33,076 bases of DNA from Candidatus Bipolaricaulia bacterium (lineage in GTDB: Bacteria > Bipolaricaulota > Bipolaricaulia > JBHIAT01), in contig JBHIAT010000020.1 in assembly GCA_046758705.1 (NCBI GenBank), positions 1 to 33,076 of the forward strand. The letters run 5' to 3'. Each line of letters begins with the position of its first letter. Positions within the stretch are counted from its first letter, which is position 1. Shown piece by piece: positions 9,726 through 33,076 of the stretch. The position numbers and the translations under genes were made by a program. The notes beneath the pieces were generated by a model, which had not been told where the DNA came from, made no database searches, and worked only from the letters and a program-made list of their open reading frames with translations.

Positions 9726-11600
9726 TCAGAGAATGACCTCGATTTCGATGATCGTGGCCGGAAAGAGACCGGATCCCGGACCGGGGATCGTCCGCTTGAA
9801 GATGGCGACCACCCCTTCCTTGATCGGATACCTGGCGGAGAGCTCCAGAAGCGAGTCTTGGTTCCAGAGGTCTGCAAAATCGACCTGCGTCTGAGTGAAC
9901 GCGAGGTTCCCCTGCAGGTTCTCCGTCAGGAACAGGGCAAGCTCGGCGGTCAACCGATCTGGAGAGCTCACGAATCTCTCGTAGCGAGCTGCCGCCGTAA
10001 AGTTCTGAAGGAAGCTGAACGCCGCCTCGACCAGGACCCCTTGGGACGCATCGGGTTGGCCTGTTTGCACTGGATCCAGATCGCGGGGCAGCACCTCAAA
10101 AGTCTCATCGAAGAAGCCGTAATAGAAGTCGTTCCCGCTCCGATAAGCGGCCCGCAGGTCGATCCCGAGGACGTTCGTGGCGACCCCGAGCTCGGTTCCG
10201 AGGTTGGGATCGACATCACCCCGCACGTACGTCCCGGCCTGAGCGTAGACCCTGGTCGGATTGCCGAGCGTCCAGATGGCATCGAGACCACCACCGATGA
10301 TCGTATTAGCGCTGTTCCCCACGACCTGTGCCCCGATCTGGAGCGGGAGGGCTGCCAACGGCTGCCAGAACCCCCGGAGACCGACGACGGTGCTCTCCTC
10401 CAAAGGGAATAAACCCTCGACACCCAACCGGTTGCCGAGCCGCAGCCGGAGGGCATTTTCTTCGTTCGTGGAGTAGTTGCGCATGAACAGGCCCTCGCCG
10501 AACCACTGACCATCGAGTGCACCGTAGAGCAACCCAAACGGATCCGTCTCGATCCCCACAGACCGGATGAGCTGTAGCAGCTGTGTGAAATCCCCTGGGA
10601 GGAGCGAGACGTCCCCAGTGACCGGATCGGCGAAGAAGCCGAAGGCTTCCGGACGCGGAGGTACCGCAGTCTGATCTCCCGCGTCGTACCACAGGTTCAG
10701 GTTAACCCCCAACTGGACGGTGCCGCCGAAGAGGCTGAAGTTCGGCCTCAGGCTGACGTTAAACAGGGCCCGATCGCCGACCGACGTCGTCCCCACGGTG
10801 CCGCTTCCTCCGCCTCCGAAGAGCGGCGGTGGAGTGGGCTCTGGTGTCGGGGTCGGGGTTGGGGTCGGCATGGGTGGTTCAGGCTCCGCCGAGGTCTTAT
10901 CGGGGCTCATTCCCTCAGAGGGTGGGCTCAGGGACCCATCCTCTAAGATCGCCGTCACCAGCCCGGCGAGCAGTTGGACGCTAGCGCCGGTGATCTTGCT
11001 GAGCACGTCCACGATCCCCGTGATCGAGCCGAACTCAGTGCTGCCGACCCGTCCCCAAAACTCGGTGCCGCGTACCGCCGCCACCGCCGACTCGGTCTCG
11101 ACCTCGAACTTGTCCTCCGCCCCGAATGCCCGCTGACCTGCCTCGGCCACCTTGGCGAATAGCGTCCCCTGGAGCAGACCGATGTTCGTACTCCTCGGGT
11201 CGTCCGGCAGAGCCAGTTCATTGATGCGAATCTGGGTCTTCTCGTTGAGCTCGATCTCGTCCCCAGGCCCGAGGATCCTCAGGATCACGTACGAACCGTC
11301 CAGGACGAAAATCTCATCGCCGATACCGAGCTGCATGCCGACGAACGCGATCTGCAAAAGCTCCAAGCCAGCCGACCTCACCGCCGCCGCCCCCACGAGC
11401 TCGATGATCTCAACCACCGGTGCCGGTTGCACCACCTCTTCCACCTCTTCTGCCTCTCGCTCCGGCTCCAGCCCAGGCTCCCGTTCCTCCTGGGCATAGA
11501 CAACTGAGGATAACGATACCACCATAAGAGACAGGATTAAGCACAGGAGCAGACCGAGACGGCCCGGTTTGCCGATTCTATCCGTTCGATGCGCTTGCAT
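9726..11600 (-). CDS. Exported FecR-domain protein with Pro/Thr linker and C-terminal beta-rich (probable barrel) domain
   Basis: Signal-peptide-like segment ending VYA-QEE. FecR-type ETESAVAAVRGTEF, then a PTPTPTPTPEPTPPP-GGGG linker and alternating-hydrophobic strands to the C-terminus. ATG 11600 follows AAGGAAGGGG. Confidence 0.75.
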   Translation of the reverse strand: MQAHRTDRIGKPGRLGLLLCLILSLMVVSLSSVVYAQEEREPGLEPEREAEEVEEVVQPAPVVEIIELVGAAAVRSAGLELLQIAFVGMQLGIGDEIFVLDGSYVILRILGPGDEIELNEKTQIRINELALPDDPRSTNIGLLQGTLFAKVAEAGQRAFGAEDKFEVETESAVAAVRGTEFWGRVGSTEFGSITGIVDVLSKITGASVQLLAGLVTAILEDGSLSPPSEGMSPDKTSAEPEPPMPTPTPTPTPEPTPPPLFGGGGSGTVGTTSVGDRALFNVSLRPNFSLFGGTVQLGVNLNLWYDAGDQTAVPPRPEAFGFFADPVTGDVSLLPGDFTQLLQLIRSVGIETDPFGLLYGALDGQWFGEGLFMRNYSTNEENALRLRLGNRLGVEGLFPLEESTVVGLRGFWQPLAALPLQIGAQVVGNSANTIIGGGLDAIWTLGNPTRVYAQAGTYVRGDVDPNLGTELGVATNVLGIDLRAAYRSGNDFYYGFFDETFEVLPRDLDPVQTGQPDASQGVLVEAAFSFLQNFTAAARYERFVSSPDRLTAELALFLTENLQGNLAFTQTQVDFADLWNQDSLLELSARYPIKEGVVAIFKRTIPGPGSGLFPATIIEIEVIL

Positions 11601-11695
11601 TGCCACCCCTTCCTTTGTGGAGAGCTTACAGTTTAATGTATAATAGCCCCCGTATCGGGGAATTGCAAATTGCAGATTTTAGGGTCCGGAAGAAG

Positions 11696-12178
11696 ATGAA
11701 CAGCACATTTGAGGGGAAGCCGGTGCGCGCGTCGCAGGTGGAGATGGTCAAGGCGGTCCAACCGGAGGATACCAACCCGATGGGAACCGCCTTTGGAGGA
11801 CGGGTGGTGGAGTGGATGGACATGATCGCGGCCATCGCCGCCAGCCGACACGCCCGTAAGCCGGTGGTCACCGCTGCAATCGATACGCTGAACTTCCTGT
11901 CCCCGATCCCTCAGGGACACATCGCCGTGCTCAAGGCATCGGTCAATTATACCGGCCGCACCTCGATGGAAGTCGGGGTGTGGGTCGAATCGGAGAACCC
12001 GCTGACCGGAGAGCGAAAGCAGACCTCGAGCGGCTACTTCACGTTCGTCGCCCTCGACGAGCAGGGGCGTCCCACACCAGTCCCGCCGGTCATCCCGGAG
12101 ACCGACGACGAGAAGCGCCAGTACGAGGAGGCGAGGGCGCGGCGCGAGGAGAAGCTGCGACAGCGGGAGATGCAATAA
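11696..12178 (+). CDS. Hotdog-fold acyl-CoA thioesterase (YciA-like)
   Basis: P.DTNP.GT.FGG....WMD..A, VVTAAID, F..PI..G, VNYTGRTSMEVGV and FTFVALDEQGRP.PVP. Confidence 0.92.
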   Translation: MNSTFEGKPVRASQVEMVKAVQPEDTNPMGTAFGGRVVEWMDMIAAIAASRHARKPVVTAAIDTLNFLSPIPQGHIAVLKASVNYTGRTSMEVGVWVESENPLTGERKQTSSGYFTFVALDEQGRPTPVPPVIPETDDEKRQYEEARARREEKLRQREMQ

Positions 12179-12197
12179 GCAATTAGGCCCGGTCATT

Positions 12198-12226: not shown

Positions 12227-12244
12227 AGGAAAAAAGGGGATGTG

Positions 12245-14326
12245 ATGACCACCTCTCCCAATCTTTCTGAATCTACGTTTGAGCCTTTTACATTGGTCGA
12301 TCTCCTCCGCTGGAGAGCACTCCACCAGCCTAACCAGCGGGCCTATACCTTCCTGACAGATGGGGAAACAGAAGAAGTCAGCCTAACCTATGGAGAGTTG
12401 GACCGGCAGGCCCGGGCCATCGGGGCCTGGCTTCAGAGCTTGGCGGCAACTGGAGAGCGTGCGCTTTTGCTCTACCCGCCGGGTCTGGAATACATTGCTG
12501 CATTTTTCGGGTGCCTGTACGCCGGAGTCGTTGCCGTTCCCGCTTATTCACCCCGACCTAACCGACCCATGTCTCGGATCCAGGCGATTGTGGCAGATGC
12601 GCAGGCAACGTTGGCTTTCACTACCACAACGATCTTGTCCAGGATGGAGCGTTGGTATGTCGATGTTCTAGACCTGAGATCTCTGAACTGGTTGGTGACC
12701 GACAAAGTCGCCAGCGACCTGGCGAAGGGGTGGCGGGATCCAAAGGTCAACGATGAAACCCTGGCTTTTCTCCAGTACACTTCGGGCTCTACGGCTGTGC
12801 CCAAGGGCGTGATGCTCACCCACGGCAACCTGCTCCACAATTCGGCCCTGATCCATCGGGTGTTCGAGCATACGCCCGACAGCCGGGGCGTGAGCTGGCT
12901 GCCGCCCTACCACGACCTGGGGCTCATCGGAGGGGTGCTGCAACCTCTCTACGGTGGGTTTCCGATGACACTTATGTCACCGGTCAGCTTCCTGCAACAC
13001 CCCGTCCGGTGGCTGAAAGCCATCTCCCGTTACAAGGCCACCACCAGCGGTGGGCCGAACTTCGCCTATGACCTGTGCGTCCGCAAGATCATCCCTAACC
13101 AGCGAGCGACCCTCGACTTGAGCAGCTGGGACATGGCGTTTAATGGCGCTGAGCCCATCCGCCGTGAGACCTTGGAGCGGTTCGCAGTGGCCTTTGAGCC
13201 CTGTGGCTTCCGTCGAGAGGCCTTTTACCCTGGCTACGGACTCGCTGAGGCAACTATGTTCGTTTCCGGTGGCTTGAAAGTCGCTCCACCCACCGTTCAG
13301 ATCTTCCAGGAGACAGCACTGAAGCACGACCAGGCGGTTGCAGCCTCCGAAAGGGATGGGGGCACCCAGACGCTTGTGGGCTGCGGTCAGGCCCTGCTGG
13401 ACCAAAAGATCCTCATCGTTCACCCCGAAAAGTTGACCCCGTGCTTGCCCGATCAAGTGGGCGAGATCTGGGTATCGAGCCCCAGCGTTGCCCAGGGTTA
13501 CTGGAACCGCCCTGAGGAGATGGAACGGACTTTCAACGCGTACCTATCCGATACGGGTGAGGGCCCGTTTCTACGCACCGGAGATCTGGGGTTTGTTTAC
13601 GATGGGGAGCTATTCGTTACCGGTCGACTCAAGGACTTGATCATCATCCGGGGCCACAACCATTACCCTCAGGACATCGAACTGACGATAGAACGGAGTC
13701 ACCCAGCGCTGCGGCCGGGCTGCAGTGCAGCGTTTTCAGTAAACGCGGCCGGTGACGAGCGGCTGGTGATTGTTCAGGAGGTCGAGCGTCATGACCGGAA
13801 TCCGAATGTAGATGAGGTAGCTGGGGCCATCCGACAATCGGTGGCTGAAGATCACGATGTGCAAGTTTATGCCGTGGTACTGATCAAGTACGGGAGCATC
13901 CCTAAGACCTCCAGCAGCAAGATTCAGCGGCACGCCTGTCGGGCCGGGTTCCTGGAGGGGAGCCTGAATGTGGTGGGAGCGTGGCGGGCAACTGTAGCTG
14001 AGGCAAGTTCCAGAGACAGAGAGCCGGTGGACGTGCCGAGAAGGAGCGCGGCGGACATCGAAGCCTGGCTGGTGTCACAGATCTCAGGGCGGTTGGGCAT
14101 GGATCCTGACGATATAGACATCGGCCAGCCCTTTGTCCAATATGGTCTGGATTCAATACAGGCGGTGAGCATCGCCCAGGAACTCGAAACGTGGCTGGGT
14201 CTTTCTCTCTCTCCCACTCTGGCTTGGGATTATCCCACAATTGAGGCGCTTTCCCGGCATCTGATCGAGGAGTTCAAGACTTCAGAGTCGGCTGTGGAAG
14301 CCGATACGACTGCATCAGAAAGGTGA
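12245..14326 (+). CDS. Fatty acyl-AMP ligase fused to ACP (FAAL-ACP loading protein)
   Basis: AFLQYTSGSTAVPKGV, SWLPPYHDLGLIG, GGPNFAY, YGLAEAT, FLRTGDLG, GRLKDLII.RG.NHYPQDIE and PKTSSSKIQR. C-terminal ACP GLDSI...WDYPTI. Confidence 0.93.
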   Translation: MTTSPNLSESTFEPFTLVDLLRWRALHQPNQRAYTFLTDGETEEVSLTYGELDRQARAIGAWLQSLAATGERALLLYPPGLEYIAAFFGCLYAGVVAVPAYSPRPNRPMSRIQAIVADAQATLAFTTTTILSRMERWYVDVLDLRSLNWLVTDKVASDLAKGWRDPKVNDETLAFLQYTSGSTAVPKGVMLTHGNLLHNSALIHRVFEHTPDSRGVSWLPPYHDLGLIGGVLQPLYGGFPMTLMSPVSFLQHPVRWLKAISRYKATTSGGPNFAYDLCVRKIIPNQRATLDLSSWDMAFNGAEPIRRETLERFAVAFEPCGFRREAFYPGYGLAEATMFVSGGLKVAPPTVQIFQETALKHDQAVAASERDGGTQTLVGCGQALLDQKILIVHPEKLTPCLPDQVGEIWVSSPSVAQGYWNRPEEMERTFNAYLSDTGEGPFLRTGDLGFVYDGELFVTGRLKDLIIIRGHNHYPQDIELTIERSHPALRPGCSAAFSVNAAGDERLVIVQEVERHDRNPNVDEVAGAIRQSVAEDHDVQVYAVVLIKYGSIPKTSSSKIQRHACRAGFLEGSLNVVGAWRATVAEASSRDREPVDVPRRSAADIEAWLVSQISGRLGMDPDDIDIGQPFVQYGLDSIQAVSIAQELETWLGLSLSPTLAWDYPTIEALSRHLIEEFKTSESAVEADTTASER

Positions 14327-14329
14327 GCA

Positions 14330-17300
14330 ATGATGAGTGGAACGGAACCGATCGCTGTCGTTGGCCTCGGCTGTCGTTTTCCTGGCGCCAACGACCCCGA
14401 AGCTTTCTGGAAGCTGTTGCGAGATGGAGTGGATGCCATCAGCGAAGTTCCGCCGAACCGGTGGGACGTCAATGCCCTCTACGACCCGGACCCTACAGCA
14501 CCGGGGAAGATGAGCACCCGCTGGGGCGGATTCCTGGAAGGGTCGGATCGTTTTGACTGCCATTTCTTCGGCATCTCCCCTCGGGAAGTGGCCGCCATGG
14601 ACCTGCAGCAACGTCTGCTGATGGAGGTGGCTTGGGAGGCGTTGGAAAACGCTGCCCAGACACCAGAACAGTTGAAAGACGGTCGGACCGGCGTGTTCAT
14701 CGGAATCTCCAGCTTCGACTGGACGATGCTTTCGAATGACCTAAATCTTATTGAGGCCTATCACGGCACAGGTAGTGCCCTGAGCATTGCGGCCAACCGC
14801 CTGTCCTACCTGTTTGACCTGAAAGGACCCAGTCTATCGGTGGATACCGCTTGTTCGTCGTCGCTCGTCGCGGTTCACCTGGCGTGCCAAAGCCTGTGGA
14901 ACCGGGAGTCCGACTTGGTCCTGGCTGGAGGCGTGAATGTGATCCTTTCCCCGCGGGTGACCATCACGCTGTCTAAGGCACACATGTTGGCCGCCGATGG
15001 TCGCTGTAAGACCTTCGACGCCGCGGCCGACGGCTATGTTCGGGGAGAAGGCTGCGGCATCGTCGTCCTCAAACGCCTCTCCGATGCGCTCCAGGACAAC
15101 GACCATATATGGGCACTTGTGCGAGGCACAGCGGTCAACCAGGATGGCCGCAGCAACGGGCTCACTGCACCTAACGGACCCGCCCAACAGGCGGCGATCC
15201 GCCAGGCCCTGAAAAACGCCGGGATGACGCCGGATCAAATCCACTACGTCGAAGCCCACGGTACCGGCACCGCCTTGGGCGATCCCATCGAGGTCCAAGC
15301 GCTCGCCGCCGTGATGAAACAGGGACGTTCACCGGACCAACCGTGTGTCATCGGTTCGGTGAAGCCGAACATCGGCCATCTGGAAGGCGCCGCCGGGGTC
15401 TCCAGCTTCATCAAAGCGGTGCTCACCCTGTTTCACGAGGAGATCCCTCCCCAGATTCACTTCAACAAGCTCAACCCCTATATCCGTTTGGAGGACACGC
15501 TCGTGATCCCTACCGAGCGGCAACCTTGGCCCGCAGGAGATGGACCGCGCTTTGCCGGGGTAGGCTCGTTCGGCTTCGGTGGAACCAATTGCCATGTAGT
15601 GCTAGAGGAGGCACCGATACTGAAGCAGGACCGATCACCGACACCGTTCAAGGTCGAGCGCCCGCTCCATCTGCTGACCTTGTCCGCAAAGGGCGACCGC
15701 GTACTGAGGCGACTGGCCCGTCGCTTTGAGGATCACCTGGCAACGCATCCTTCATCACCGCTCCCCGATATCTGCTTCACCGCCAATACGGGAAGGTCCC
15801 ATTTCGACCACCGCCTCGCTGTCACCGCCGATTCCAGCGAACAGCTGCGTGAAAGGCTGAATGCGTTCGCCACCGGGAATGGGAAGCAGACGACCGGATT
15901 ACTGAGCCAGCAGGTACGGAGTCAGAGTCGGCCAAAGGTGGTGTTCCTTTTTACAGGGCAGGGTTCACAGGAACCCGGAATGGGGAAGAAGCTTTACGAG
16001 ACCCAACCCACGTTTCGCAAAGCCCTGAACCGGTGTGCCGAACTCCTCGATCCCCACCTAGAGCAGCCGCTGTTATCGGTGCTCCATTCCGAATCGGGGG
16101 CTCGTTCACCGCTGCACCAGACCGTATACGCCCAGCCGGCGCTGTTTGCACTCGAGTATGCCCTGGCCGAAATGTGGCGGTCGTGGGGGATAGAACCTAG
16201 CGCGGTCATGGGCCACAGCATAGGTGAATATGCGGCCGCCTGTGTCGCCGGTGTGCTCAGCCTGGAAGATGGCCTCAAGCTCGTCGCAGAGCGGGCGCGC
16301 CTGATACAGGCTCTGCCCCAGGATGGGATGATGGCGGTCGTGTTTGCCGATGAAGCGCAACTGGCTGCCGCTCTGGCTCCGTACCAAGAGCATGTCTCTA
16401 TTTCCGCGGTCAACGGCCCGGAGAACACGGTGATCTCAGGTGTCCGGAAGGCAGTACTGGCGGTGATCGAGCAACTGAAGTCCGAGGGAGTTGCCGCTCA
16501 GCCACTGACCGTCTCCCACGCATTCCACTCCCCTCTGATGGAGCCTATGCTCGACGCGTTTGAGCGGACGGTGAGCCAATTGCAATTTGAAGCCCTGCGC
16601 ATTCCGCTGATCTCCAACCTGACCGGACAGATGCTGGAGCCTGGCGACGTCCCCGATGTCGACTACTGGCGGCGTCATCTTCGAGAGCCGGTGCGATTTG
16701 CGGCGGGGATCAACACGCTTTCCGAGCAAGGCTATGAGCTCTTCTTAGAGTTGGGTCCGAAACCCTCGCTGTTGAGCATGGGAAAGCGGTGCCTACCGAA
16801 AGGCAAGGGTACCTGGCTGCCGTCGTTGCGGTCGGGTCAAGATGATTGGCAGGTGGTACTGAACAGCTTGGGGGCCCTATACACCCATGGAGTCGATGTG
16901 GACTGGGTCGGATTTGACCAGGACTACGAGCGTCGTCGGGTCCCTCTGCCAACCTATCCGTTTGAGCGAGAGCCACTCGATTCGGGTCGAGGTCGGACCG
17001 CGACGTTCCAGATGTCGACCCGACATCCGTTGCTGGGCCAGCGGCTGCGTTCAGCGCATCATATCTTCGAATCCCAGCTCAGTACCCGTTCCTATGCCTA
17101 TTTGGGAGATCACCGGGTCCAGGGGGCGGTGGTGCTGCCGGCAACGGCTTACGTGGAGATGGCTCTGGGCGCTGCTGCCGAGGTGCTCAACGAGGAACCC
17201 CACGTCCTGTCTCTGACGGAGATCGAATTTCAAAAGGCGCTCTTCTTCACAGAGGACGAGTGGCGAACGGTTCAACTGATCCTCTCTCCCGATGATGTGA

Positions 17301-20300
17301 CCGGAGAACTGTCGTTTCACATCTACAGTCTCACGATAGGCAAAGAACAGGAAGGAGCGCAAGAATCGTGGACGCTTCATGCGACCGGAAAGATCCATCT
17401 CGATCCGATCAACACCGCCCCCGATGTTCTGGGACAAGATAGGCTCGAAGAGATCGTGGCCCGGGCCTCGGAGCAGATGACCGGAACGAATTACTACCTG
17501 GAGCTTCAGGAAAGAGGGTTCCAATATGGACCGCATTTTCAGGGAATTGAGCAGATGTGGCGACGTGAGGGAGAATCCCTGGGTCAGCTGCGGATTCCCG
17601 AGATCCTGGAGTCGAAACTCGATCTCTACCGGTTTCATCCCGCCATCCTTGACATTTGCCTTCAGGTCTTGGCCGGCGCTGTACCCGATGAGTTAAGGTA
17701 CAGCGACAGCATCTTCCTGCCGATTGGTGTGGACAGAATCCGAGTTTACGGTCGTCCCGTTTCCCAGATGTGGGGCCACGGTCAGCTCCGATCCTATGGA
17801 CAACACACGAACGTTCTGGAAGGGAGCGTCCATCTGTTCGATGAGGACGGCCGCGTCATCGTAGAGGTTGAGGGTCTACGCTTCCAGCGCCTGGATGATG
17901 TGGATACAGACGGTAAAGGTAAACAGCGTACCGCTCCGCAAGATTTGAACGATTGGCTCTATGAGATCCAGTGGCATCCCCTGGCGTGCCCAGAGCTGGA
18001 AGTTCAGCCGACTTCATCTCCAGGGAGCTGGCTGATCTTTGCCAACAGCGGCGATCGGGGGGAGGAACTGGCTGCGCTGCTGACGGCGCGGGGAGAAAGA
18101 CCGGTGTTGGTCTACCCAGGAGAAGCCTATGAACGTTTGGATGAATCGCACGTTCGCATCCATCCGGCACGTCCCGAAGAGATGCACGAGCTCCTCAACG
18201 AGGCATTGGGGTCAGAGGCGCCTGCCTGTCGTGGGGTGATCCACCTTTGGAGCCTGGACGCCCTGCCTGTGGAACAGACCACCGTGGCTTCGTTAGAGAC
18301 CGCTCAGACCCTAAGCTGTATCAGCGTGATGCATCTGATACAGGCACTGGCCGAAACCGGTTGGACTCTATTGCCCCGCCTGTGGTTGGTAACCCGGGGC
18401 GCCCAATCCGTCGAAGGTGAGAACGGAATCAAACCGGTATCGATCGCCCAATCGATCGTGTGGGGCCTCGGCAGGGCCATTTACCACGAGCATCCGGAAC
18501 TCCGCTGTACGGCGGTGGATTTGGATCCTGACGGGACACTGGAGCAGATTCAATCTCTCTTCCAGGAGGTGTGGTCGGACGATCGCGAGAATCAGATCGC
18601 ATTGCGCGGCGACGTGCGCTACGTGGCCCGATTGGTGCAAGCAGCAAAAGAGCCCCAAGCTTCCGATCAAGAATCTGAATCTGTTTCTGTTTCGGCTCAG
18701 GAAAGACTTTTAGTGCCTCAAACCGGTCCCTTCCACCTGGAGCCCTCCGCGACCGGCATTTTGGATGAGTTGACCCTAAAGCCGTCCACGCATCGAGCCC
18801 CAGGTCCTGGAGAGGTCGAGATCGAGGTCCGGGCGACTGGCCTCAACTTCAGAGACGTGATGAAGGCGATGGGCATCTATCCGACCGGCCGCGACGATAT
18901 CCTGTGGCTCGGTGATGAATGTGCAGGTGAAATCGTTTCGGTTGGAGCAGGTGTCGATGATTTCCAAACAGGAGACGAGGTCATCGCCGTCGCTCCGGCC
19001 GCCTTCGGCCGATTTACGACGACCCCCGCCGCCTTCGTCGCCCCCAAACCAGCGCACTTGAGTTTTGAGCAGGCGACATCGATTCCTATCGCCTTCCTGA
19101 CCGCCTACCATGCGCTCCATCAGTTGGGCAGGTTGAGCAAAGGCGGGCGAGTCCTCATCCATGCAGCCGCCGGAGGGGTGGGTCTCGCCGCCGTGCAAAT
19201 TGCCCAATGGTTGGGTGCCGAGATCTTCGCCACCGCAGGCAGCCCGAAAAAACGGGAGTTCCTCCGCTCCCTCGGCGTTGGACACGTCATGGATTCAAGG
19301 TCCTTGGACTTTGCCCATGAGGTCATGGAACAGACCGACGGACAGGGTGTGGACGTCGTGTTAAACTCCCTCGCCGGAGAGGCGATGCACAAGAGTCTGT
19401 CGATCCTTGGCCCTTACGGACGCTTTCTGGAGATCGGCAAGCGCGACATCTACCTGAACAGCCGGTTAGGTCTGCGACCGTTTCAGAACAGCTTGTCGTT
19501 CTTTGCCATCGATATGGATCGGCTGTTCCGAGAGCGTGCCGAGTTCGCCGCTTCCCTGCTTCGAGAGGTGATGAAGAAGTTTGAGGACGGCACGTTCACG
19601 CCCCTTCCTGTAACGGAGTTCTCGATCCTGGAGGTGGTGGACGCGTTCCGCTATATGGCACGCGCCAAGCACATCGGCAAGATTGTGGTGTCTATGCCGG
19701 ATCGACAGGCATCGGCAGCCTCTTCTCCCGTTGGCGAAGCGCCGGCGACCTTTCGTTCCGATGGCAGTTACTTGATTACCGGTGGACTCGGTGGCCTCGG
19801 CCTGTTGATCGCCCAGTGGATGGCCCGACAGGGAGCGGGACATCTGATCCTGACAGGGAGAAGCGGTGCGTCCGAGGCCGCAGAGGAAGTCTTGGAAGCT
19901 ATGAGGCAGGCCGGCGCTCAAGTTCACGTCATCAAGGCCGATGTGTCCCAAGGAGAACAGGTCGCCCATCTTTTATCCGAAATCGACCGATCGATGCCGC
20001 CGCTGAGAGGCATCGTCCATGCAGCTGGGGTCTTGGACAACGATATCTTGCTGAACTTGAACCAGGAGCGTTTTATGTCGGTCATGGCACCAAAGGTGGC
20101 CGGTGCCTGGAACCTGCATATCCAAACCCAGCGTTTGAGCCAACCGTTGGACTGCTTCGTGCTCTTCTCCTCGATTGCTTCCCTGTTCGGGTCTCCAGGG
20201 CAGGGGAACTATGCCGCCGCTAACGCATTCCTGGATGCGCTAGCGCACTACCGACAATCTCAGGGGGTGCCCGCGTTGAGCGTCAACTGGGGGCCGTGGT

Positions 20301-21001
20301 CCGAGGCGGGAATGGCGGCTCGGGGGGATCGGGAGGGGCGTCTTGCGCTGCGAGGCATCGGAAGTATCACCCCTGAACAAGGACTGGCCTTGCTGGAACG
20401 ATTTCTTAACCAAGGCAAGACACAGACCGGAGTGGTACCGGTCGACTGGCGACAGTGGTTCAAGTTCTATCCCGCCACTCGTCAATCTCCGATGCTCTCC
20501 GATCTCCTGTCTGACGTAGAGATCGATCGGCCGAAAGAGAAAGGGAGTGCGATTCGCGACCTGCTCCTTTCTCTGGAGCTGGATGAACGTCAGAAGACGT
20601 TGGAGACCTATATCCAGAAGGAGATCGCTCGGGTGCTGCAGCTCGATCCATCCCGGATCGATTTGGAAACTCCGTTGAACACCATCGGCCTCGACTCGCT
20701 CATGGCCATTGAACTCAACAATCGCGTTGAGACCGAACTGAATGTCACCTTGCCTATGATCACCCTGATACAGGGCCCCAGCATCTCCGAGCTTGCGACG
20801 CAACTGATTGAACTGTTGGAAGAACCCTCCTCGACTCCAGATGCTACCCAAACCCGGAAGGCCAACGCTCTCCCCCTCGCCCGCGACCCCAGTCAGAAAG
20901 ACGCGGGACAGTTGTTGTCACAACTTGATCAACTCTCGGATGAGGAAGTGGATGCATTGCTCAGCGGTATGCTAGATGAAGATGAAGGGGATACTGCATG
21001 A
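14330..21001 (+). CDS. Type I PKS, single fully reducing module KS-AT(malonyl)-DH-ER-KR-ACP
   Basis: KS DTACSSS/HGTGT/NIGHLE. AT GHSIG (16211) with HAFH (16517). [12 protein letters not shown] and [41 protein letters not shown]. Acidic C-terminal docking-like helix [13 protein letters not shown]. Confidence 0.95.
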
Positions 21002-22452
21002 GCAATACCTCTAACCGTATCGATGATCTTTCGCCAGAGGAAAAACGTGAACTTCTTGCACAGCTGCTTCGCAAGAAGGCGAGCGAGCCCAACCCTTTGT
21101 CGTTTTCTCAAGAGCGATTGTGGTTTCTCCACCAGTTGGAACCCGACAGTCCCGCTTATAACATCCCGTTAGCCCTTCGGTTTACGGGTCCGCTCAGCGT
21201 GTCCATCGCGGAACGGAGCCTCAACGAAATCGTGCGGCACCATGAAGTGTTGCGAACCACCTTCTCAGTCGTGGATGGGCGGCCGGTCCAGGTCATCGCT
21301 CCGGCCCTGACCCTGCCACTACCGGTGGTGGACCTGCGAGAGTTGCCCGAGACGGAGCGGGAGACTGAGGTCCGGCGGCTGGCCACCGAGGAAGCCCGAC
21401 GACCCTTCGACCTGGTCCGGGGTCCACTCCTACGGGTCACCTTGTTACGGCTGGGCGAGGAGGAGTACGTGGGGTTGTTGATCATGCACCACATCGTCTC
21501 CGACGGTTGGTCCACGGGGGTGCTTGGTCGTGAGCTGGCAGCGCTGTACAGCGCCTTCTCCACCGGAAGTCCCTCACCTCTGCCTGAATTGCCCATTCAG
21601 TACGCCGACTTCGCCCGCTGGCAACGGAAGTGGCTCCACGGGGAGGTTCTGGAGACCCAGCTGGCTTACTGGAAGCAACAACTCGAGGGTGCCCCCACCG
21701 CCCTGGAGCTGCCCACCGACCGTCCCCGACCCGCGATCCAGACTGATCAAGGCGCACGCCAACCTCTGGTGCTGCCCAAGTCCCTTACTGAGGCGCTCAA
21801 GACTTTGAGCCAGCAGCAGGGTGTCACCCTGTTCATGATGTTGCTGGCCGCGTTCAACACGTTACTCTACCGCTATACCGGGCAGGACGACATCGTTGTG
21901 GGCTCGCCGATCGCTGGGCGCAACCGGGTTGAGACAGAGGGATCGATTGGGTGCTTTATCAACATGCTGGGGATACGCACCGACCTTTCGGGCAACCCCA
22001 CGTTTCGGGAGCTGCTGAGTCGGGTGCGCGAGGTGACCTTGGGCGCCTATGCCCACCAGGATCTGCCGTTCGAGAAGCTGGTGGAGGAACTACAGCCGGA
22101 GCGGGACCTGGGCCACACACTGCTGTTTCAGGTGACGTTCGGCCTCCATAATGTCCCGATGCCGACCCTGGAGCTACCGGACCTGACCCTGAGCCCACTG
22201 GAGATCGACAGGGGGACAGCGAAGCGTGATTTGGAGTTCCACCTATGGGAGCGTCCGGAGGGCCTCAGGGGCTTTTTGGTGTACAACACAGATCTGTTTG
22301 ATGCCGCGACCATCACCCGGATGCTGGAGCATTTCCAGATTTTGCTGGAAGGCATCGTGGCCGATCCTGAGGGGCGCATCTCGGACTTGCCGTTGACGTT
22401 GACAGAAGCCGAGCAACAGCAGTTGCTTGTTGAAAGGGGGCAAAATGAATAG
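20998..22452 (+). CDS. Stand-alone NRPS condensation domain protein
   Basis: [21 protein letters not shown], intact HHIVSDG, IQYADFA.WQ and [11 protein letters not shown]-terminal [15 protein letters not shown] docking-like helix. Stops at the C-A linker. ATGA overlap with the PKS stop. Confidence 0.93.
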
Positions 22453-22693
22453 TGACGAGAAAGAAGACAGGACGATCTACAAAGTCGTCGTGAATCACGA
22501 AGAGCAGTACTCGATCTGGCCCGCCGACCGGGAGAACCCTCCCGGCTGGACGGATGCGGGCAAACGTGGATCCAAGACGGAATGCCTGGCGTATATCAAG
22601 GAAGTGTGGACCGATATGAGGCCTCTCAATCTACGTAAGAAGATGGAGGACTCTGCGCACAAGCCAAACCCAAGAGGTCAGTCCGACCTATGA
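22445..22693 (+). CDS. mbtH: MbtH-like protein
   Basis: [13 protein letters not shown]...P.GW......K.ECL.YI...WTDMRP with three conserved Trp. AAAGGGGG RBS and 8-nt overlap with the upstream gene. Confidence 0.95.
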
Positions 22694-22743
22694 AGAGCTG
22701 GACCGCCAAGCCCGGGTCATCGGGGCCTGGCTTCAGAGCTTGG
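22672..22743 (+). pseudogene. 72-bp remnant paralogous to the 5' part of the FAAL gene (12372-12443)
   Basis: Ungapped manual alignment gives 63/72 identical nt. Translates [23 protein letters not shown] versus FAAL EVSLTYGELDRQARAIGAWLQSL. Confidence 0.85.
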
Positions 22744-22911
22744 GAGCCGGTTCAATCGTTTGAAAACATAGCTTCCCGCATAGTCGGGTCACCTTCTCAA
22801 AGTTGCGTTCAAGGTGTTATTTTAAGTATATCATTGACAGGTATCAGCTATATCTTTGACTGAGTGACTTAACACTTGATCGGACTCCAGATCAAGTCCT
22901 TGGAGGGGGCG

Positions 22912-29614
<6,703 letters not shown>

Positions 29615-29622
<8 letters not shown>

Positions 29623-32600
29623 CATTTCCAGGCGCATATCCGAGCTCCCGCCGGAGAAACGAAAGCTATTTGAACTGTTACTGCGCGAACAGGGTGTGGA
29701 TGTTGGACGATCGTTCATCGTTCCTCGAAGCAGAGAGTCCGACACCTTTCCCTTATCTTTCGGCCAGGAGCGGCTGTGGTTCCTTGACCAGCTCGATCCC
29801 AGCCACCCTGTCTACAACGAGTCCGGCGCCATTCGCCTCCAGGGTTCGGTCAACCTCGCCGCGCTGGAGCAGAGCCTTAACGAAATCGTGCGCCGCCACG
29901 AAGTGCTGCGCACCACCTTTGCCACGGTAGACGGACAACCCGTCCAGGTCATCGCCCCGGCTTTGACTCTGTCTTTGCCGGTGGTAGACCTGCGGGAGTT
30001 GCCTGAGGCGGAGCAGGAGGCCGAGGTCCGGCGGCGGGTCACCGAGGAAGCCCAGCGGCCGTTTGACCTGGCCCGCGGCCCGCTCATGCGGGTCACCCTG
30101 CTACGGCTGGGTAAACGGGATCACGTCCTGCTCCTGACGATACATCACATCGTGTGCGACGGCTGGTCTATAGGAATCCTCGTTCGAGAGCTCGCCATGC
30201 TCTATAAAGCCTTCTCGACGGGAAACCCCTCGCCGCTGCCTGAGCTGCCGATCCAGTACGCCGACTTCGCACACTGGCAAAGAGAATGGTTGCAAGGTGA
30301 AGTTCTTGAGAGCCAATTGTCCTACTGGAAACAGCAGTTGGGAGACGATCCACCCGTGCTGCAACTACCGACCGACCGTCCGCGACCACCGGTCCAGACC
30401 TTCCGAGGGGCGACCCAGTTCTTTGAGTTGCCCAAGGCGCTGTACGAATCGCTCAAAGCGTTGAGCCGACGCGAGGACGTCACGCTGTTCATGACGCTGC
30501 TCGCCGTCTTCCAGGCCTTGCTTTCCCGCTACAGCGGTCAGGAAGACATCATCGTGGGCACGCCCATCGCCGGCCGTACCCGAGCTGAGCTTGAAGCGCT
30601 GATCGGGTTCTTTGTCAACACGCTGGTGTTGCGCTCCGATCTTTCGGGGGATCCCAGTTTTCGGGAGCTGCTCGGCCGGGTGCGCAACGTGACGTTGAAC
30701 GCCTATGCCCATCAGGATCTTCCCTTCGAAAAGCTGGTGGAAGAACTGCAGCCGGAGCGCAGCCTCAGCCACACCCCGCTGTTCCAGGTGATGTTCCAAC
30801 TCTACAATGCCCAGATGTCGACCCTGGAGGTCGACACCGGGACGACGGTCCTCGAGTTGAATCCATTCCAACTCTATAATGTCCAGATGCCGGCCCTGGA
30901 GGCCCCAGAGGTGACCTTGAGCTCATTGGAGGCCGACACCGGGACGACGGTCTCTGATTTGAATCTACTCATGGTTGAGGAAGCGCAAGGACTGAGAGGA
31001 TGGATAGAGTACAGCACCGACCTGTTCGACGGGGCTACCATCGAGCGAATGCTGGGGCACTTCCAGACGTTGCTCGAAGGGGTCGTCGCCGACCCCGACC
31101 GGCGCCTCTCCGACTTTCCACTGTTGACCGAGACAGAACAGCATCAACTGCTGTTGGAGTGGAACGACACCCAAGCCGATTATCCCCAGGATTCATGCCT
31201 CCATCAGCTGTTTGAGGCCCAGGTTGAGAAAACACCCGATGCCGTGGCTGTGGTTTTTGAAGACGAACAACTGACCTATCAAGCGCTGAACGACCGTGCG
31301 AATCAACTGGCGCATCACTTGCAGTCGATGGGGGTTGGACCCGAGGTGCGGGTGGGCATGTTTATGGACCGCTCCTTGGAGATGGTGATCGGTCTACTGG
31401 GCATCCTCAAGGCCGGCGGAGCCCATGTGCCGTTGGATCCGGCGTACCCGAAGGAACGTCTGGCGTTCATGCTGCAGGATGCGAACGTGCCGGTGTTGCT
31501 GACCCAACAACAGTTGCTGGAGCGACTGCCCGAGCACAGTGCTGAGGTAATCTGTCTCGACACCGACTGGCAGACGATCGCCCAACAGAGCGCAGACAAC
31601 CCGACAAGCGACACGACACCCAACCACCTGGCTTATGTGATCTACACCTCCGGTTCCACCGGCACGCCCAAGGGCGTCATGATCCCTCACCGCGGCATCT
31701 GCAATCGCCTCCATTGGATGCAGTCCGCCTATCGACTGACCGAGACCGATCGTGTTCTGCAGAAAACGCCGTTCAGTTTCGACGTATCGGTGTGGGAGTT
31801 CTTCTGGCCGCTCTTGACCGGCGCCCGTCTGGTAGTGGCTCGACCCGACGGTCATCGGGACAACGCGTATCTCGTCCAGCTGATGGCCGAGCAGCAGATC
31901 ACCACGCTCCACTTCGTGCCCTCGATGCTGCAACTGTTTGTGGAAGAACCGGAGCTCGAGGTGGGCTACAGTCTAAAACGCGTCATCTGCAGCGGCGAGG
32001 CATTACCTATTGGGCTCCAGGAACGGTCCTTCGCCCGTCTGGATGCAGAAACAGAACTGCACAACCTCTACGGCCCTACAGAGGCTTCCATCGATGTCAC
32101 CTGCTGGGCGTGTGAGCGGGACAGCCAGCTGCGGACGGTCCCCATCGGTCGACCGATCGACAACACACAGATCTACATTCTGGACGCACATCTGCAACCG
32201 GTGCCGATCAGCGTGCCGGGCGAGCTGTACATCGGCGGTGTCAGCTTGGCCCGCGGCTACCACGGCCGGCCGGCGCTGACCGGCGAGCGGTTCATTCCCG
32301 ACCCGTTCAGTGACGAGCCCGGCGCGCGCCTCTACAAAACCGGGGATCTGGCCCGTTACCGACCCGATGGGAATATCGAGTTTCTCGGTCGTAACGACGA
32401 TCAGGTAAAGATCCGGGGGTTCCGCATCGAACCCGGGGAGATCGAAGCCGTGCTGGGGGAACACCCCGCCGTGCACGAGGTTGTGGTTCTCGCCCGGGAA
32501 GATGCGCCCGGTAACCGACGCCTGGTCGCTTATCTGGTCGTCGATCAGGAGCCTGCCCCTTCCACCACTGAACTGCGTCGCTTCCTGCAACAGAAACTGC

Positions 32601-33076
32601 CGGAGTATATGGTTCCCTCGGCGTTTGTGGTGCTCGACGCCCTGCCACTGACACCCAACGGCAAGGTGGATCGCCGCGCACTGCCTGCACCCGACCCGAC
32701 CCGGCCTGAGCTGGAACGCACCTTTAACGCGCCTCGGACCTCCATTGAGGAGAGGGTCGCGGGCATCTGGACCGAACTGCTCGGTGTGGAACAGGTCGGT
32801 GTCTACGACAACTTCTTCGAATTGGGGGGCCATTCGCTGCTGGCCACTCAGGTCATCTCCCGGGTGCGCGACACTTTCCAGGTGGAGCTGCCTCTACGTC
32901 GCCTGTTTGAACTGCCTACCGTCGCCGGTCTGGCTGAGAGTATTGAAGCGACCCGTCTGACGGGGCAAGGCCTAAACGTCCCGCCCATACGGCCCGTCCC
33001 ACGGGAAAAATACCTGCCGCTCTCCTTTGCCCAGGAGCGATTGTGGTTCCTCGATCAGCTGATGCCCGACAGTCCC
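29615..33076 (+). CDS. NRPS, partial (C-A-T-C...), first A domain predicted to activate serine; runs off the window end
   Basis: Manual translation from ATG 29615: [78 protein letters not shown]-domain GGHSL, then LSFAQERLWFL. Not in the supplied ORF track. Confidence 0.95.
30794..30967 (+). repeat. Imperfect in-frame tandem duplication within the NRPS C domain
   Basis: FQLYNAQMSTLEVDTGTTVLELNP (30794-30865) precedes FQLYNVQMPALEAPEVTLSSLEADTGTTVSDLNL (30866-30967). CGACACCGGGACGACGGTC is shared exactly. Confidence 0.9.

Follow-up and report, generated by a model that had tools for sequence, protein, structure and literature searches.

The window analyzed here, the whole of contig JBHIAT010000020.1 (33,076 nucleotides; contig C20) from the metagenome-assembled genome (MAG) of a Candidatus Bipolaricaulia bacterium (assembly GCA_046758705.1), carries part of a lipopeptide gene cluster in which a stand-alone condensation (C) domain, C1 (20998-22452), stands between a polyketide synthase (PKS) gene and an mbtH gene. 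Comparison with its paralogs indicates that C1 is very probably the remaining 5' portion of a formerly complete nonribosomal peptide synthetase (NRPS) gene of the first of three gene cassettes, and that it arose by a deletion ending in the linker between the C and adenylation (A) domains. This is an ordinary kind of event, the decay of a cassette by deletion, which happens to be unusually well documented at this locus. Taken as a whole, the data are probably best explained by a 5' NRPS remnant lying within cassettes that complement one another, with no dedicated catalytic job for C1 itself.

The origin of C1

Pfam scans of the window and of contig C19 (also referred to as locus L015) identify three tandem paralogous cassettes. 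The two contigs are read as contiguous because a single C-domain motif abuts exactly across them, in frame, from ...DQLMPDSP at the end of the window to VYNLSFAARL... at the start of C19; the MAG comprises 3.7 Mb in 319 contigs, with a completeness of 93.9% and a depth of roughly 10x. Each cassette would once have consisted of a 4HBT thioesterase, a fatty acyl-AMP ligase fused to an acyl carrier protein (FAAL-ACP) as loader, a reducing PKS, an NRPS and an MbtH gene. According to Pfam, the present order is 4HBT, FAAL-ACP, PKS1, C1 and mbtH1 in cassette 1; PKS2, NRPS2 with domains C-A-T-C-A-T-R (T, thiolation; R, reductase) and mbtH2 in cassette 2; and, on C19, FAAL-ACP-KS-AT-DH-KR-ACP, NRPS3 with domains C-A-T, a thioesterase and a phosphopantetheinyl transferase (PPTase) in cassette 3. 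The features on which the argument turns are the following:

14330-21001, + strand: PKS1, KS-AT-DH-ER-KR-ACP with an acidic C-terminal tail (Pfam)
20998-22452, + strand: C1, the stand-alone C domain (Pfam Condensation, translation, comparison with paralogs)
22437-22440, + strand: joint J1, where the C-A linker codon corresponding to Trp (AGG at present) meets position -5 of mbtH (limits of homology)
22445-22693, + strand: mbtH1 (Pfam PF03621, positions 1-53 of 53, E 3.4e-24)
22666-22743, + strand: internal fragment of FAAL2, 78 nt, codons about 44-70, between joints J2 and J3 (nucleotide identity)

Residues 33-477 of the 484-residue product of the C1 open reading frame (ORF) align with positions 6-456 of the Pfam Condensation profile PF00668, which has 456 positions (E 1e-115), and the translation of C1 includes an intact catalytic HHxxxDG motif in the form HHIVSDG. 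The chain breaks off at the Trp of LLxEW/NxT, the motif of the C-A linker; the downstream NRPS aligns with it through ...FPL-LTETEQHQLLLE and then runs on with WNDTQ into its A domain. No A-T acceptor module follows in cis, since the C1 ORF is complete at 22452 and is succeeded by mbtH and then by a PKS gene. At the 5' end, the ATG of C1 (20998) overlaps the TGA of PKS1 (20999-21001) by 4 nt within the sequence ATGA (20998-21001); at the 3' end, the ATG of mbtH (22445) lies inside C1, whose TAG occupies 22450-22452, which amounts to an 8-nt overlap, and a GGGGG run (22436-22440) located 4 nt upstream of this ATG would serve as ribosome-binding site (RBS).

The best matches of C1 in the PDB are Txo2 (6p1j) and Txo1 (6oyf), both at E about 1e-112, together with 5u89 and TycC6 (2jgp; 2e-85), all of which we take to be chains of the LCL (elongation) type. 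A structure of PapA5 exists in the PDB, and the 41 distinct PDB sequences matched at E <= 1e-20 include neither VibH nor PapA-type chains; C1 is thus no close relative of VibH. By sequence, C1 is an LCL-type NRPS C domain. A first-pass annotation made from the letters alone had described it in the same terms, as a full-length and ordinary elongating C domain with an intact HHIVSDG, cut at the C-A linker where the downstream NRPS continues, overlapping both neighbors and holding the RBS of mbtH in its last codons; profile, alignment, sequence and closest structures all bear this description out.

The break itself can be located almost to the base. At the nucleotide level C1 is homologous to the paralogous C domains as far as 22437; from 22440 on, it is homologous to the region upstream of mbtH2 and the start of that gene (C19 4315-4407, 85%). 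In its last 12 nt the C1 ORF has the sequence found ahead of mbtH in cassette 2, where the R domain of NRPS2 ends with ...CCGGAAGCAAAATGA and overlaps mbtH2. In all three intact paralogs the linker reads ...GA(A/G)TGGAA(T/C)..., for E-W-N; at this place C1 has GAAAGG and then GGGCAAAATGAATAG. The length of J1 is exactly that predicted for a deletion at a GGAA microhomology between the GAATGGAAT linker and the CCGGAAGCAAAATG sequence in front of mbtH, and 3 of the 16 bases differ from the predicted product, differences that may be later substitutions or may go back to the lost parent sequences. Because the ORF crosses a deletion joint, the C-terminal QNE of C1 and the stop that follows it come from the mbtH start, translated in a different frame (+2).

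What has been lost is indicated by the other two cassettes, in both of which a full NRPS gene, C-A-T-C-A-T-R or C-A-T, occupies the equivalent place after the PKS. The PKS and NRPS genes overlap there as well, by 8 nt in PKS2/NRPS2 and by 4 nt in PKS3/NRPS3; since cassettes 2 and 3 show the same PKS/NRPS and NRPS/mbtH overlaps, both overlaps of C1 and the RBS it contains are inherited from ancestral junctions. The first-pass annotation had held that full C-A-T genes at this place in all close homologous clusters would tell against a maintained stand-alone domain: both paralogous cassettes of the same genome do carry full genes, and no orthologous cluster was found.

Reality of J1 and the adjacent joints

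J1 is almost certainly real DNA rather than an artefact. Logan contigs were compared for X1, X2 and X3, three samples of one study, two of which may be the source of the MAG. A single X1 contig covers 20000-24000 with one difference from the window; an X3 contig over 21640-22965 bridges J1 with no differences; and two X2 contigs, over 21972-22513 and 22484-24000, are likewise free of differences. The only variant among the three samples in 20000-24000 is synonymous, at L259, and provides no population signal. A further run, X4, yielded only short low-depth pieces of relatives and is uninformative on J1.

An assembly chimera, in which the joint between the C domain and mbtH would be present in no cell, is very improbable. 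The suspicion is fed by the presence of paralogous modules in a MAG of roughly 10x depth, by the depth of the joint-bearing X3 contig (6.6, against 10.9 and 9.3 for its flanks) and by a 2980-nt X2 contig of depth 11.1 that contains the 30-mer 21972-22001 and then diverges into sequence outside the MAG. Against this, the joint was found mismatch-free in three separate Logan assemblies, and the joint-bearing X2 contig is at full depth (9.4, against 10.2 and 11.3). Moreover, De Bruijn contigs contain only k-mers from reads, and no 25-mer around 22437-22440 occurs elsewhere in the MAG; over 20500-23500, 25-mers are common with the rest of the MAG at three spots only (21010, 22493 and 22718), none of them at J1. 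The misassembly near 22430 that the first-pass annotation had considered is thus contradicted by bridging in all three samples and by the lack of a shared 25-mer at the joint. As for the 2980-nt X2 contig that shares 21972-22001, it may represent an unbinned paralog or another rearranged copy.

J1 is accompanied by further joints. The 3' end of mbtH1 is fused to the 78-nt FAAL2 fragment, which is 85.9% identical at the nucleotide level to window 12366-12443 and 84.6% identical to C19 5558-5635, the corresponding parts of FAAL1 and FAAL3; its translation is to be compared with EVSLTYGELDRQARAIGAWLQSL, which is common to both intact FAAL copies. As the mbtH1 stop (22691-22693) lies inside the fragment, mbtH1 takes its final 6-9 codons from FAAL DNA, in a frame other than that of FAAL. 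In cassette 2, mbtH2 is broken, matching the MbtH model at positions 1-29 of 53 only (L015 4320-4580), and is joined, at a microhomology of 12-13 nt, to the 3'-terminal 181 nt of a 4HBT gene (C19 4396-4576), a fragment 92.8% identical to the 4HBT copy of cassette 1 (window 11999-12179). A genome-wide MbtH profile search returned 2 matches, mbtH1 and the partial mbtH2; because the latter covers only 1-29 of 53 positions, mbtH1 is the sole intact MbtH gene of the genome.

The FAAL2 fragment is surely a pseudogene, and both it and the joint between mbtH2 and 4HBT are products of the same deletion process as that seen at J1. The deletion scar, which the first-pass annotation had listed as one of its options, accordingly receives strong support as the origin of C1 from the full paralogous genes, the pre-mbtH tail and the extra joints within 320 nt.

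The FAAL2 fragment ends near 22745 and is followed by about 165 nt of unrelated spacer up to PKS2. This spacer includes a motif of about 45 nt, with a TATACT box, a short CACCTG...CAGGTG hairpin and a GAAGGTGA stretch, of which the MAG holds four further copies at 86-90% identity (C14 about 24709-24768, C5 about 33283-33330, C78 about 9824-9868 and C77 about 710-752); the copy in C14 lies directly upstream of a DUF772/DDE transposase gene. The motif could be a promoter or leader, or the relic of an insertion-sequence end. An Rfam scan of 22600-23000, motif included, gave nothing credible (best E 0.65), and a promoter and terminator scan of 20500-23500 stayed at chance level.

Remnant or working enzyme

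The joints show that an illegitimate deletion fused the Trp codon of LLxEW/NxT to a point 5 nt upstream of mbtH1, giving the ORF its present QNE end. Further deletions took 4HBT2 and nearly all of FAAL2-ACP2 and broke mbtH2 in the next cassette, and mbtH1 would have been kept as an island between two deletions. Cassettes 1 and 2 would now be complementary, with cassette 1 giving the loader and the sole intact MbtH, and cassette 2 a full NRPS. In line with this, PKS2 is without a loader of its own and NRPS2 without an intact MbtH of its own, both functions being left in cassette 1 only.

Sequences at the protein termini suggest what PKS1 could still do. The N-terminal 32 residues of C1 match NRPS3 at 27 of 32 positions and NRPS2 at 14 of 31, and the last-35-residue tail of PKS1 matches that of PKS3 at 23 of 34 positions and that of PKS2 at 13 of 31; cassettes 1 and 3 thus appear to share a docking code. 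With such a common code, PKS1 would still be able to feed NRPS3, which offers C-A-T and a thioesterase, and C1 would be dispensable. As to its present state, the balance tips slightly toward a relic, a translational leader for mbtH1, or both: the C1 ORF would have stayed open if the deletion is fairly young, if ribosomes on C1 feed the overlapping start of mbtH1, or for both reasons.

A number of observations weigh against a C1 devoid of function. There is no stop or frameshift in its 484 codons, and all core motifs are kept. Within a set of 239 C domains (234 from related loci and 5 from this genome), C1 deviates at 4 of the 94 columns that are at least 90% conserved, the median being 3, and 108 of the 239 deviate at 4 or more. 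Lineage-specific replacements are only slightly in excess (59 of 452, against 51 and 46 for the NRPS2 C domains), and the ratio of nonsynonymous to synonymous changes, 35:41 against 53:93, is not significantly raised in a comparison of low power (p = 0.19). In addition, the 6.7-kb PKS1 gene has remained fully open, an argument for continued use of its product; a relic docking unproductively to the tails of PKS1 and PKS3 should be selected against; and other bacteria conserve related stand-alone C proteins that belong to the clade of C1.

The FAAL2 fragment offers a local yardstick of limited use. Its lineage-specific changes, 3 nonsynonymous to 2 synonymous against 1:8 in the two intact paralogs (p = 0.095), and its lack of a difference from C1 (p = 0.66) both come from comparisons of low power. 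Tests of selection within the genome do not separate a young relic from a maintained gene. An informal dating from the few changes would favor selection on C1; it was set aside, since the changes in the fragment may predate the deletion. The view that C1 is apparently maintained, taken in the first-pass annotation, and the repurposed acyltransferase that it gave as its other option are neither established nor contradicted by these results; the RBS and the overlaps, being inherited from ancestral junctions, do not speak for maintenance.

A different reading, possible but unlikely, is that C1 has been repurposed as a trans-acting off-loader that docks to the tail of PKS1 and releases the fully reduced acyl chain as an amide or ester. 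The acceptor could be a free nucleophile, an aminoacyl-T of NRPS2 or NRPS3 in trans, or the reduced product of the NRPS2 R domain. Beyond the intact catalytic motif and a typical degree of conservation, this reading is favored by the intact state of the N-terminal docking helix, of the PKS1 tail that matches it, and of PKS1 and FAAL-ACP themselves, and by the recurrence in other genomes of same-clade stand-alone C proteins of 513-525 aa, adjoined in locus L105 by a pyridoxal phosphate (PLP)-dependent decarboxylase. Precedents are provided by Zmn19 and Bamb_5915, described in excerpts from PMC5811116 and PMC9113145, respectively, as stand-alone C domains that release PKS-bound thioesters, and an excerpt from PMC11546977 reports that NRPSs split at the WNATE motif of the linker and rejoined by zippers work.

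The supply of an acceptor tells against such a role, since Pfam scans from window 1 to the end of C19 found, between window 11600 and C19 18117, no decarboxylase or aminotransferase that would provide an amine or alcohol donor, although an acceptor from primary metabolism could take its place. C1 is also nearest to ordinary in-line LCL domains, with no VibH or PapA type among the 41 PDB sequences, and every feature that might suggest maintenance is inherited from the ancestral gene. Nor did the searched sets contain an ortholog with a conserved truncation: among the best 120 proteins listed, none exceeds 70% identity (top 70%), and the top values are 69% in metagenome contigs (among 75 loci kept) and 67% in genome contigs (among 76 loci kept). 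At the DNA level, none of 40 genomes of the same class matched the region, and an orthologous cluster with the same truncation, the conservation check proposed in the first-pass annotation, was found in none of the protein, metagenome, genome and 40-genome searches. No RNA runs holding the stretch were found.

Somewhat more doubtful still is the stronger form of this proposal, in which the deletion at the linker Trp would have made an in-line C domain into a docked off-loader and merged two half-decayed cassettes into one pathway sharing one loader and one MbtH. On either reading C1 falls within known kinds of protein; its membership among free-standing releasing enzymes is not established.

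It is improbable, finally, that C1 is one half of a split module whose A-T protein is encoded elsewhere in the genome, with nothing lost. A MAG in 319 contigs that is 93.9% complete leaves some room for this, as do the small NRPS contigs C275 and C292, neither of which has been placed. These are, however, internal module pieces that begin with or contain C domains of their own, not A-T genes lacking a C domain; the other AMP-binding matches in the MAG lie in ORFs of 555-930 aa. The adjacent FAAL2 fragment and the pre-mbtH tail, moreover, point to loss rather than relocation. A remnant within complementing cassettes hence continues to be the preferred reading of C1.

Relation to known systems and the remainder of the locus

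C1 resembles in-line LCL C domains in its full PF00668 match, its HHxxxDG motif, its 60-70% identity to many of them and its place after a carrier domain, and differs from them in that no A-T follows it in either protein or gene. Zmn19 of the zeamine pathway, in the account excerpted from PMC5811116, stands alone and couples PKS-bound thioesters with a free amine, and Bamb_5915, according to an excerpt from PMC9113145, is a stand-alone C domain with a docking domain acting in enacyloxin release; enzymes of this kind release PKS- or PCP-bound thioesters onto free nucleophiles. With both, C1 shares its free-standing position beside a PKS and possibly the logic of an ACP-bound donor and a soluble acceptor; unlike them, it is very probably deletion-born, has no gene supplying an acceptor and an N-terminal extension of only 32 aa, and is known from sequence alone. 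VibH of vibriobactin, the archetypal free-standing C domain as presented in an excerpt from PMC11546977, likewise consists of one C domain that has the catalytic His motif, but is not close by sequence.

As regards the break, the excerpt from PMC11546977 names the WNATE motif of the C-A linker as a site for splitting and rejoining NRPSs, and an excerpt from PMC8097286 states that natural recombination tends to leave the C-A linker intact. The latter also describes known deletions, such as the origin of nodularin from microcystin and the loss of the mcyA N-methyltransferase; these are similar in the loss of modules or domains, whereas the C1 break falls inside the C-A linker and leaves an orphan C domain.

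C-only proteins are not rare in the clade of C1: among 265 related C-domain matches, 24 stop within 40 residues past the domain, 158 continue and 83 run off the locus. A stand-alone C protein followed by TauD and then by C-A-T occurs in 3 of 5 ORF-scanned loci (L093 5875-8507, L105 4266-8653 and L115 5995-8594), in genomes of Microcoleus, Nostoc and others, with the PLP-dependent decarboxylase of L105 directly upstream. These loci are alike in having a C-only ORF of the same clade (54-64% identity), then a gene other than A-T, then an NRPS with its own C domain. Their C proteins carry a C-terminal tail of 20-30 aa and have TauD as neighbor, and the arrangement recurs across species; C1, by contrast, is followed by mbtH and has no known ortholog.

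The paralogs within the cluster are old, PKS1 and PKS2 sharing 51% identity, and C1 is 66-69% identical to both NRPS2 C domains and 48% identical to that of NRPS3 (L015 13188-14690). In relation to the latter C1 is a mosaic: identity to the NRPS3 C domain is 70-72% over the first 40 and the last 60 residues of C1 and 33-52% over residues 60-400, a part that is 60-85% identical to the NRPS2 C domains. Relative to C1, a stretch of about 24 aa is imperfectly duplicated within the first C domain of NRPS2 (FQLYN...TGTTV... occurs twice; window about 30797-30871), a duplication that Tandem Repeats Finder did not detect.

The other features of the locus are these:

11600-12178, + strand: 4HBT (hotdog) thioesterase, first gene of cassette 1 (Pfam 4HBT, E 4e-18)
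12242-14326, + strand: FAAL-ACP loader of cassette 1 (Pfam AMP-binding, AMP-dom_DIP2-like, PP-binding)
22778-22825, - strand: repeated motif of roughly 45 nt, inside the spacer of about 165 nt before PKS2 (MAG copies)
22913-29622, + strand: PKS2, KS-AT-DH-ER-KR-ACP, without its own loader (Pfam; GGAGG ahead of the ATG at 22913)
29615-33076, + strand: 5' part of NRPS2, C-A-T-C..., continuing as ...A-T-R in C19 to 4323 (Pfam)
C19 5434-13191: FAAL-ACP-PKS of cassette 3 (Pfam)
C19 13188-16550: NRPS3, C-A-T (Pfam)

The start of PKS2 is taken as the ATG at 22913; the mechanical ORF list begins it at a TTG (22876). In the AT domains, PKS1 has the motifs GHSIGE and HAFHS and PKS2 the motifs GQSMGE and YASHS, presumably indicating a malonyl extender unit for PKS1 and a methylmalonyl one for PKS2. 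The stretch that separates the broken mbtH2 from FAAL3 includes, on the - strand, an ORF of 236 aa for which Pfam gave no match (L015 4635-5345). The end of the cluster is placed near C19 18117 because the trp operon comes next: the PPTase gene of the cluster is followed directly by a PALP gene resembling TrpB and by a complete trp operon (L015 18350-19708 and L169 1-6129). Farther along, at L169 8193-9458, a TnpB/Cas12f-like gene (OrfB_IS605 and TNB domain) stands between two ATP-grasp genes of the RimK/LysX type.

In summary, the significance of C1 depends on its present state. If it is active, the locus would show how a single deletion step can turn in-line C domains into stand-alone releasing ones, and it would offer a natural precedent for the splitting of NRPSs at the C-A linker. 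If it is a relic, C1 would be a worked example of complementary decay in tandem PKS-NRPS cassettes, with base-level joints and a preserved mbtH. Such cases would be useful for predicting the products of gene clusters; either way, an automated annotation of this locus as one colinear assembly line would be wrong.

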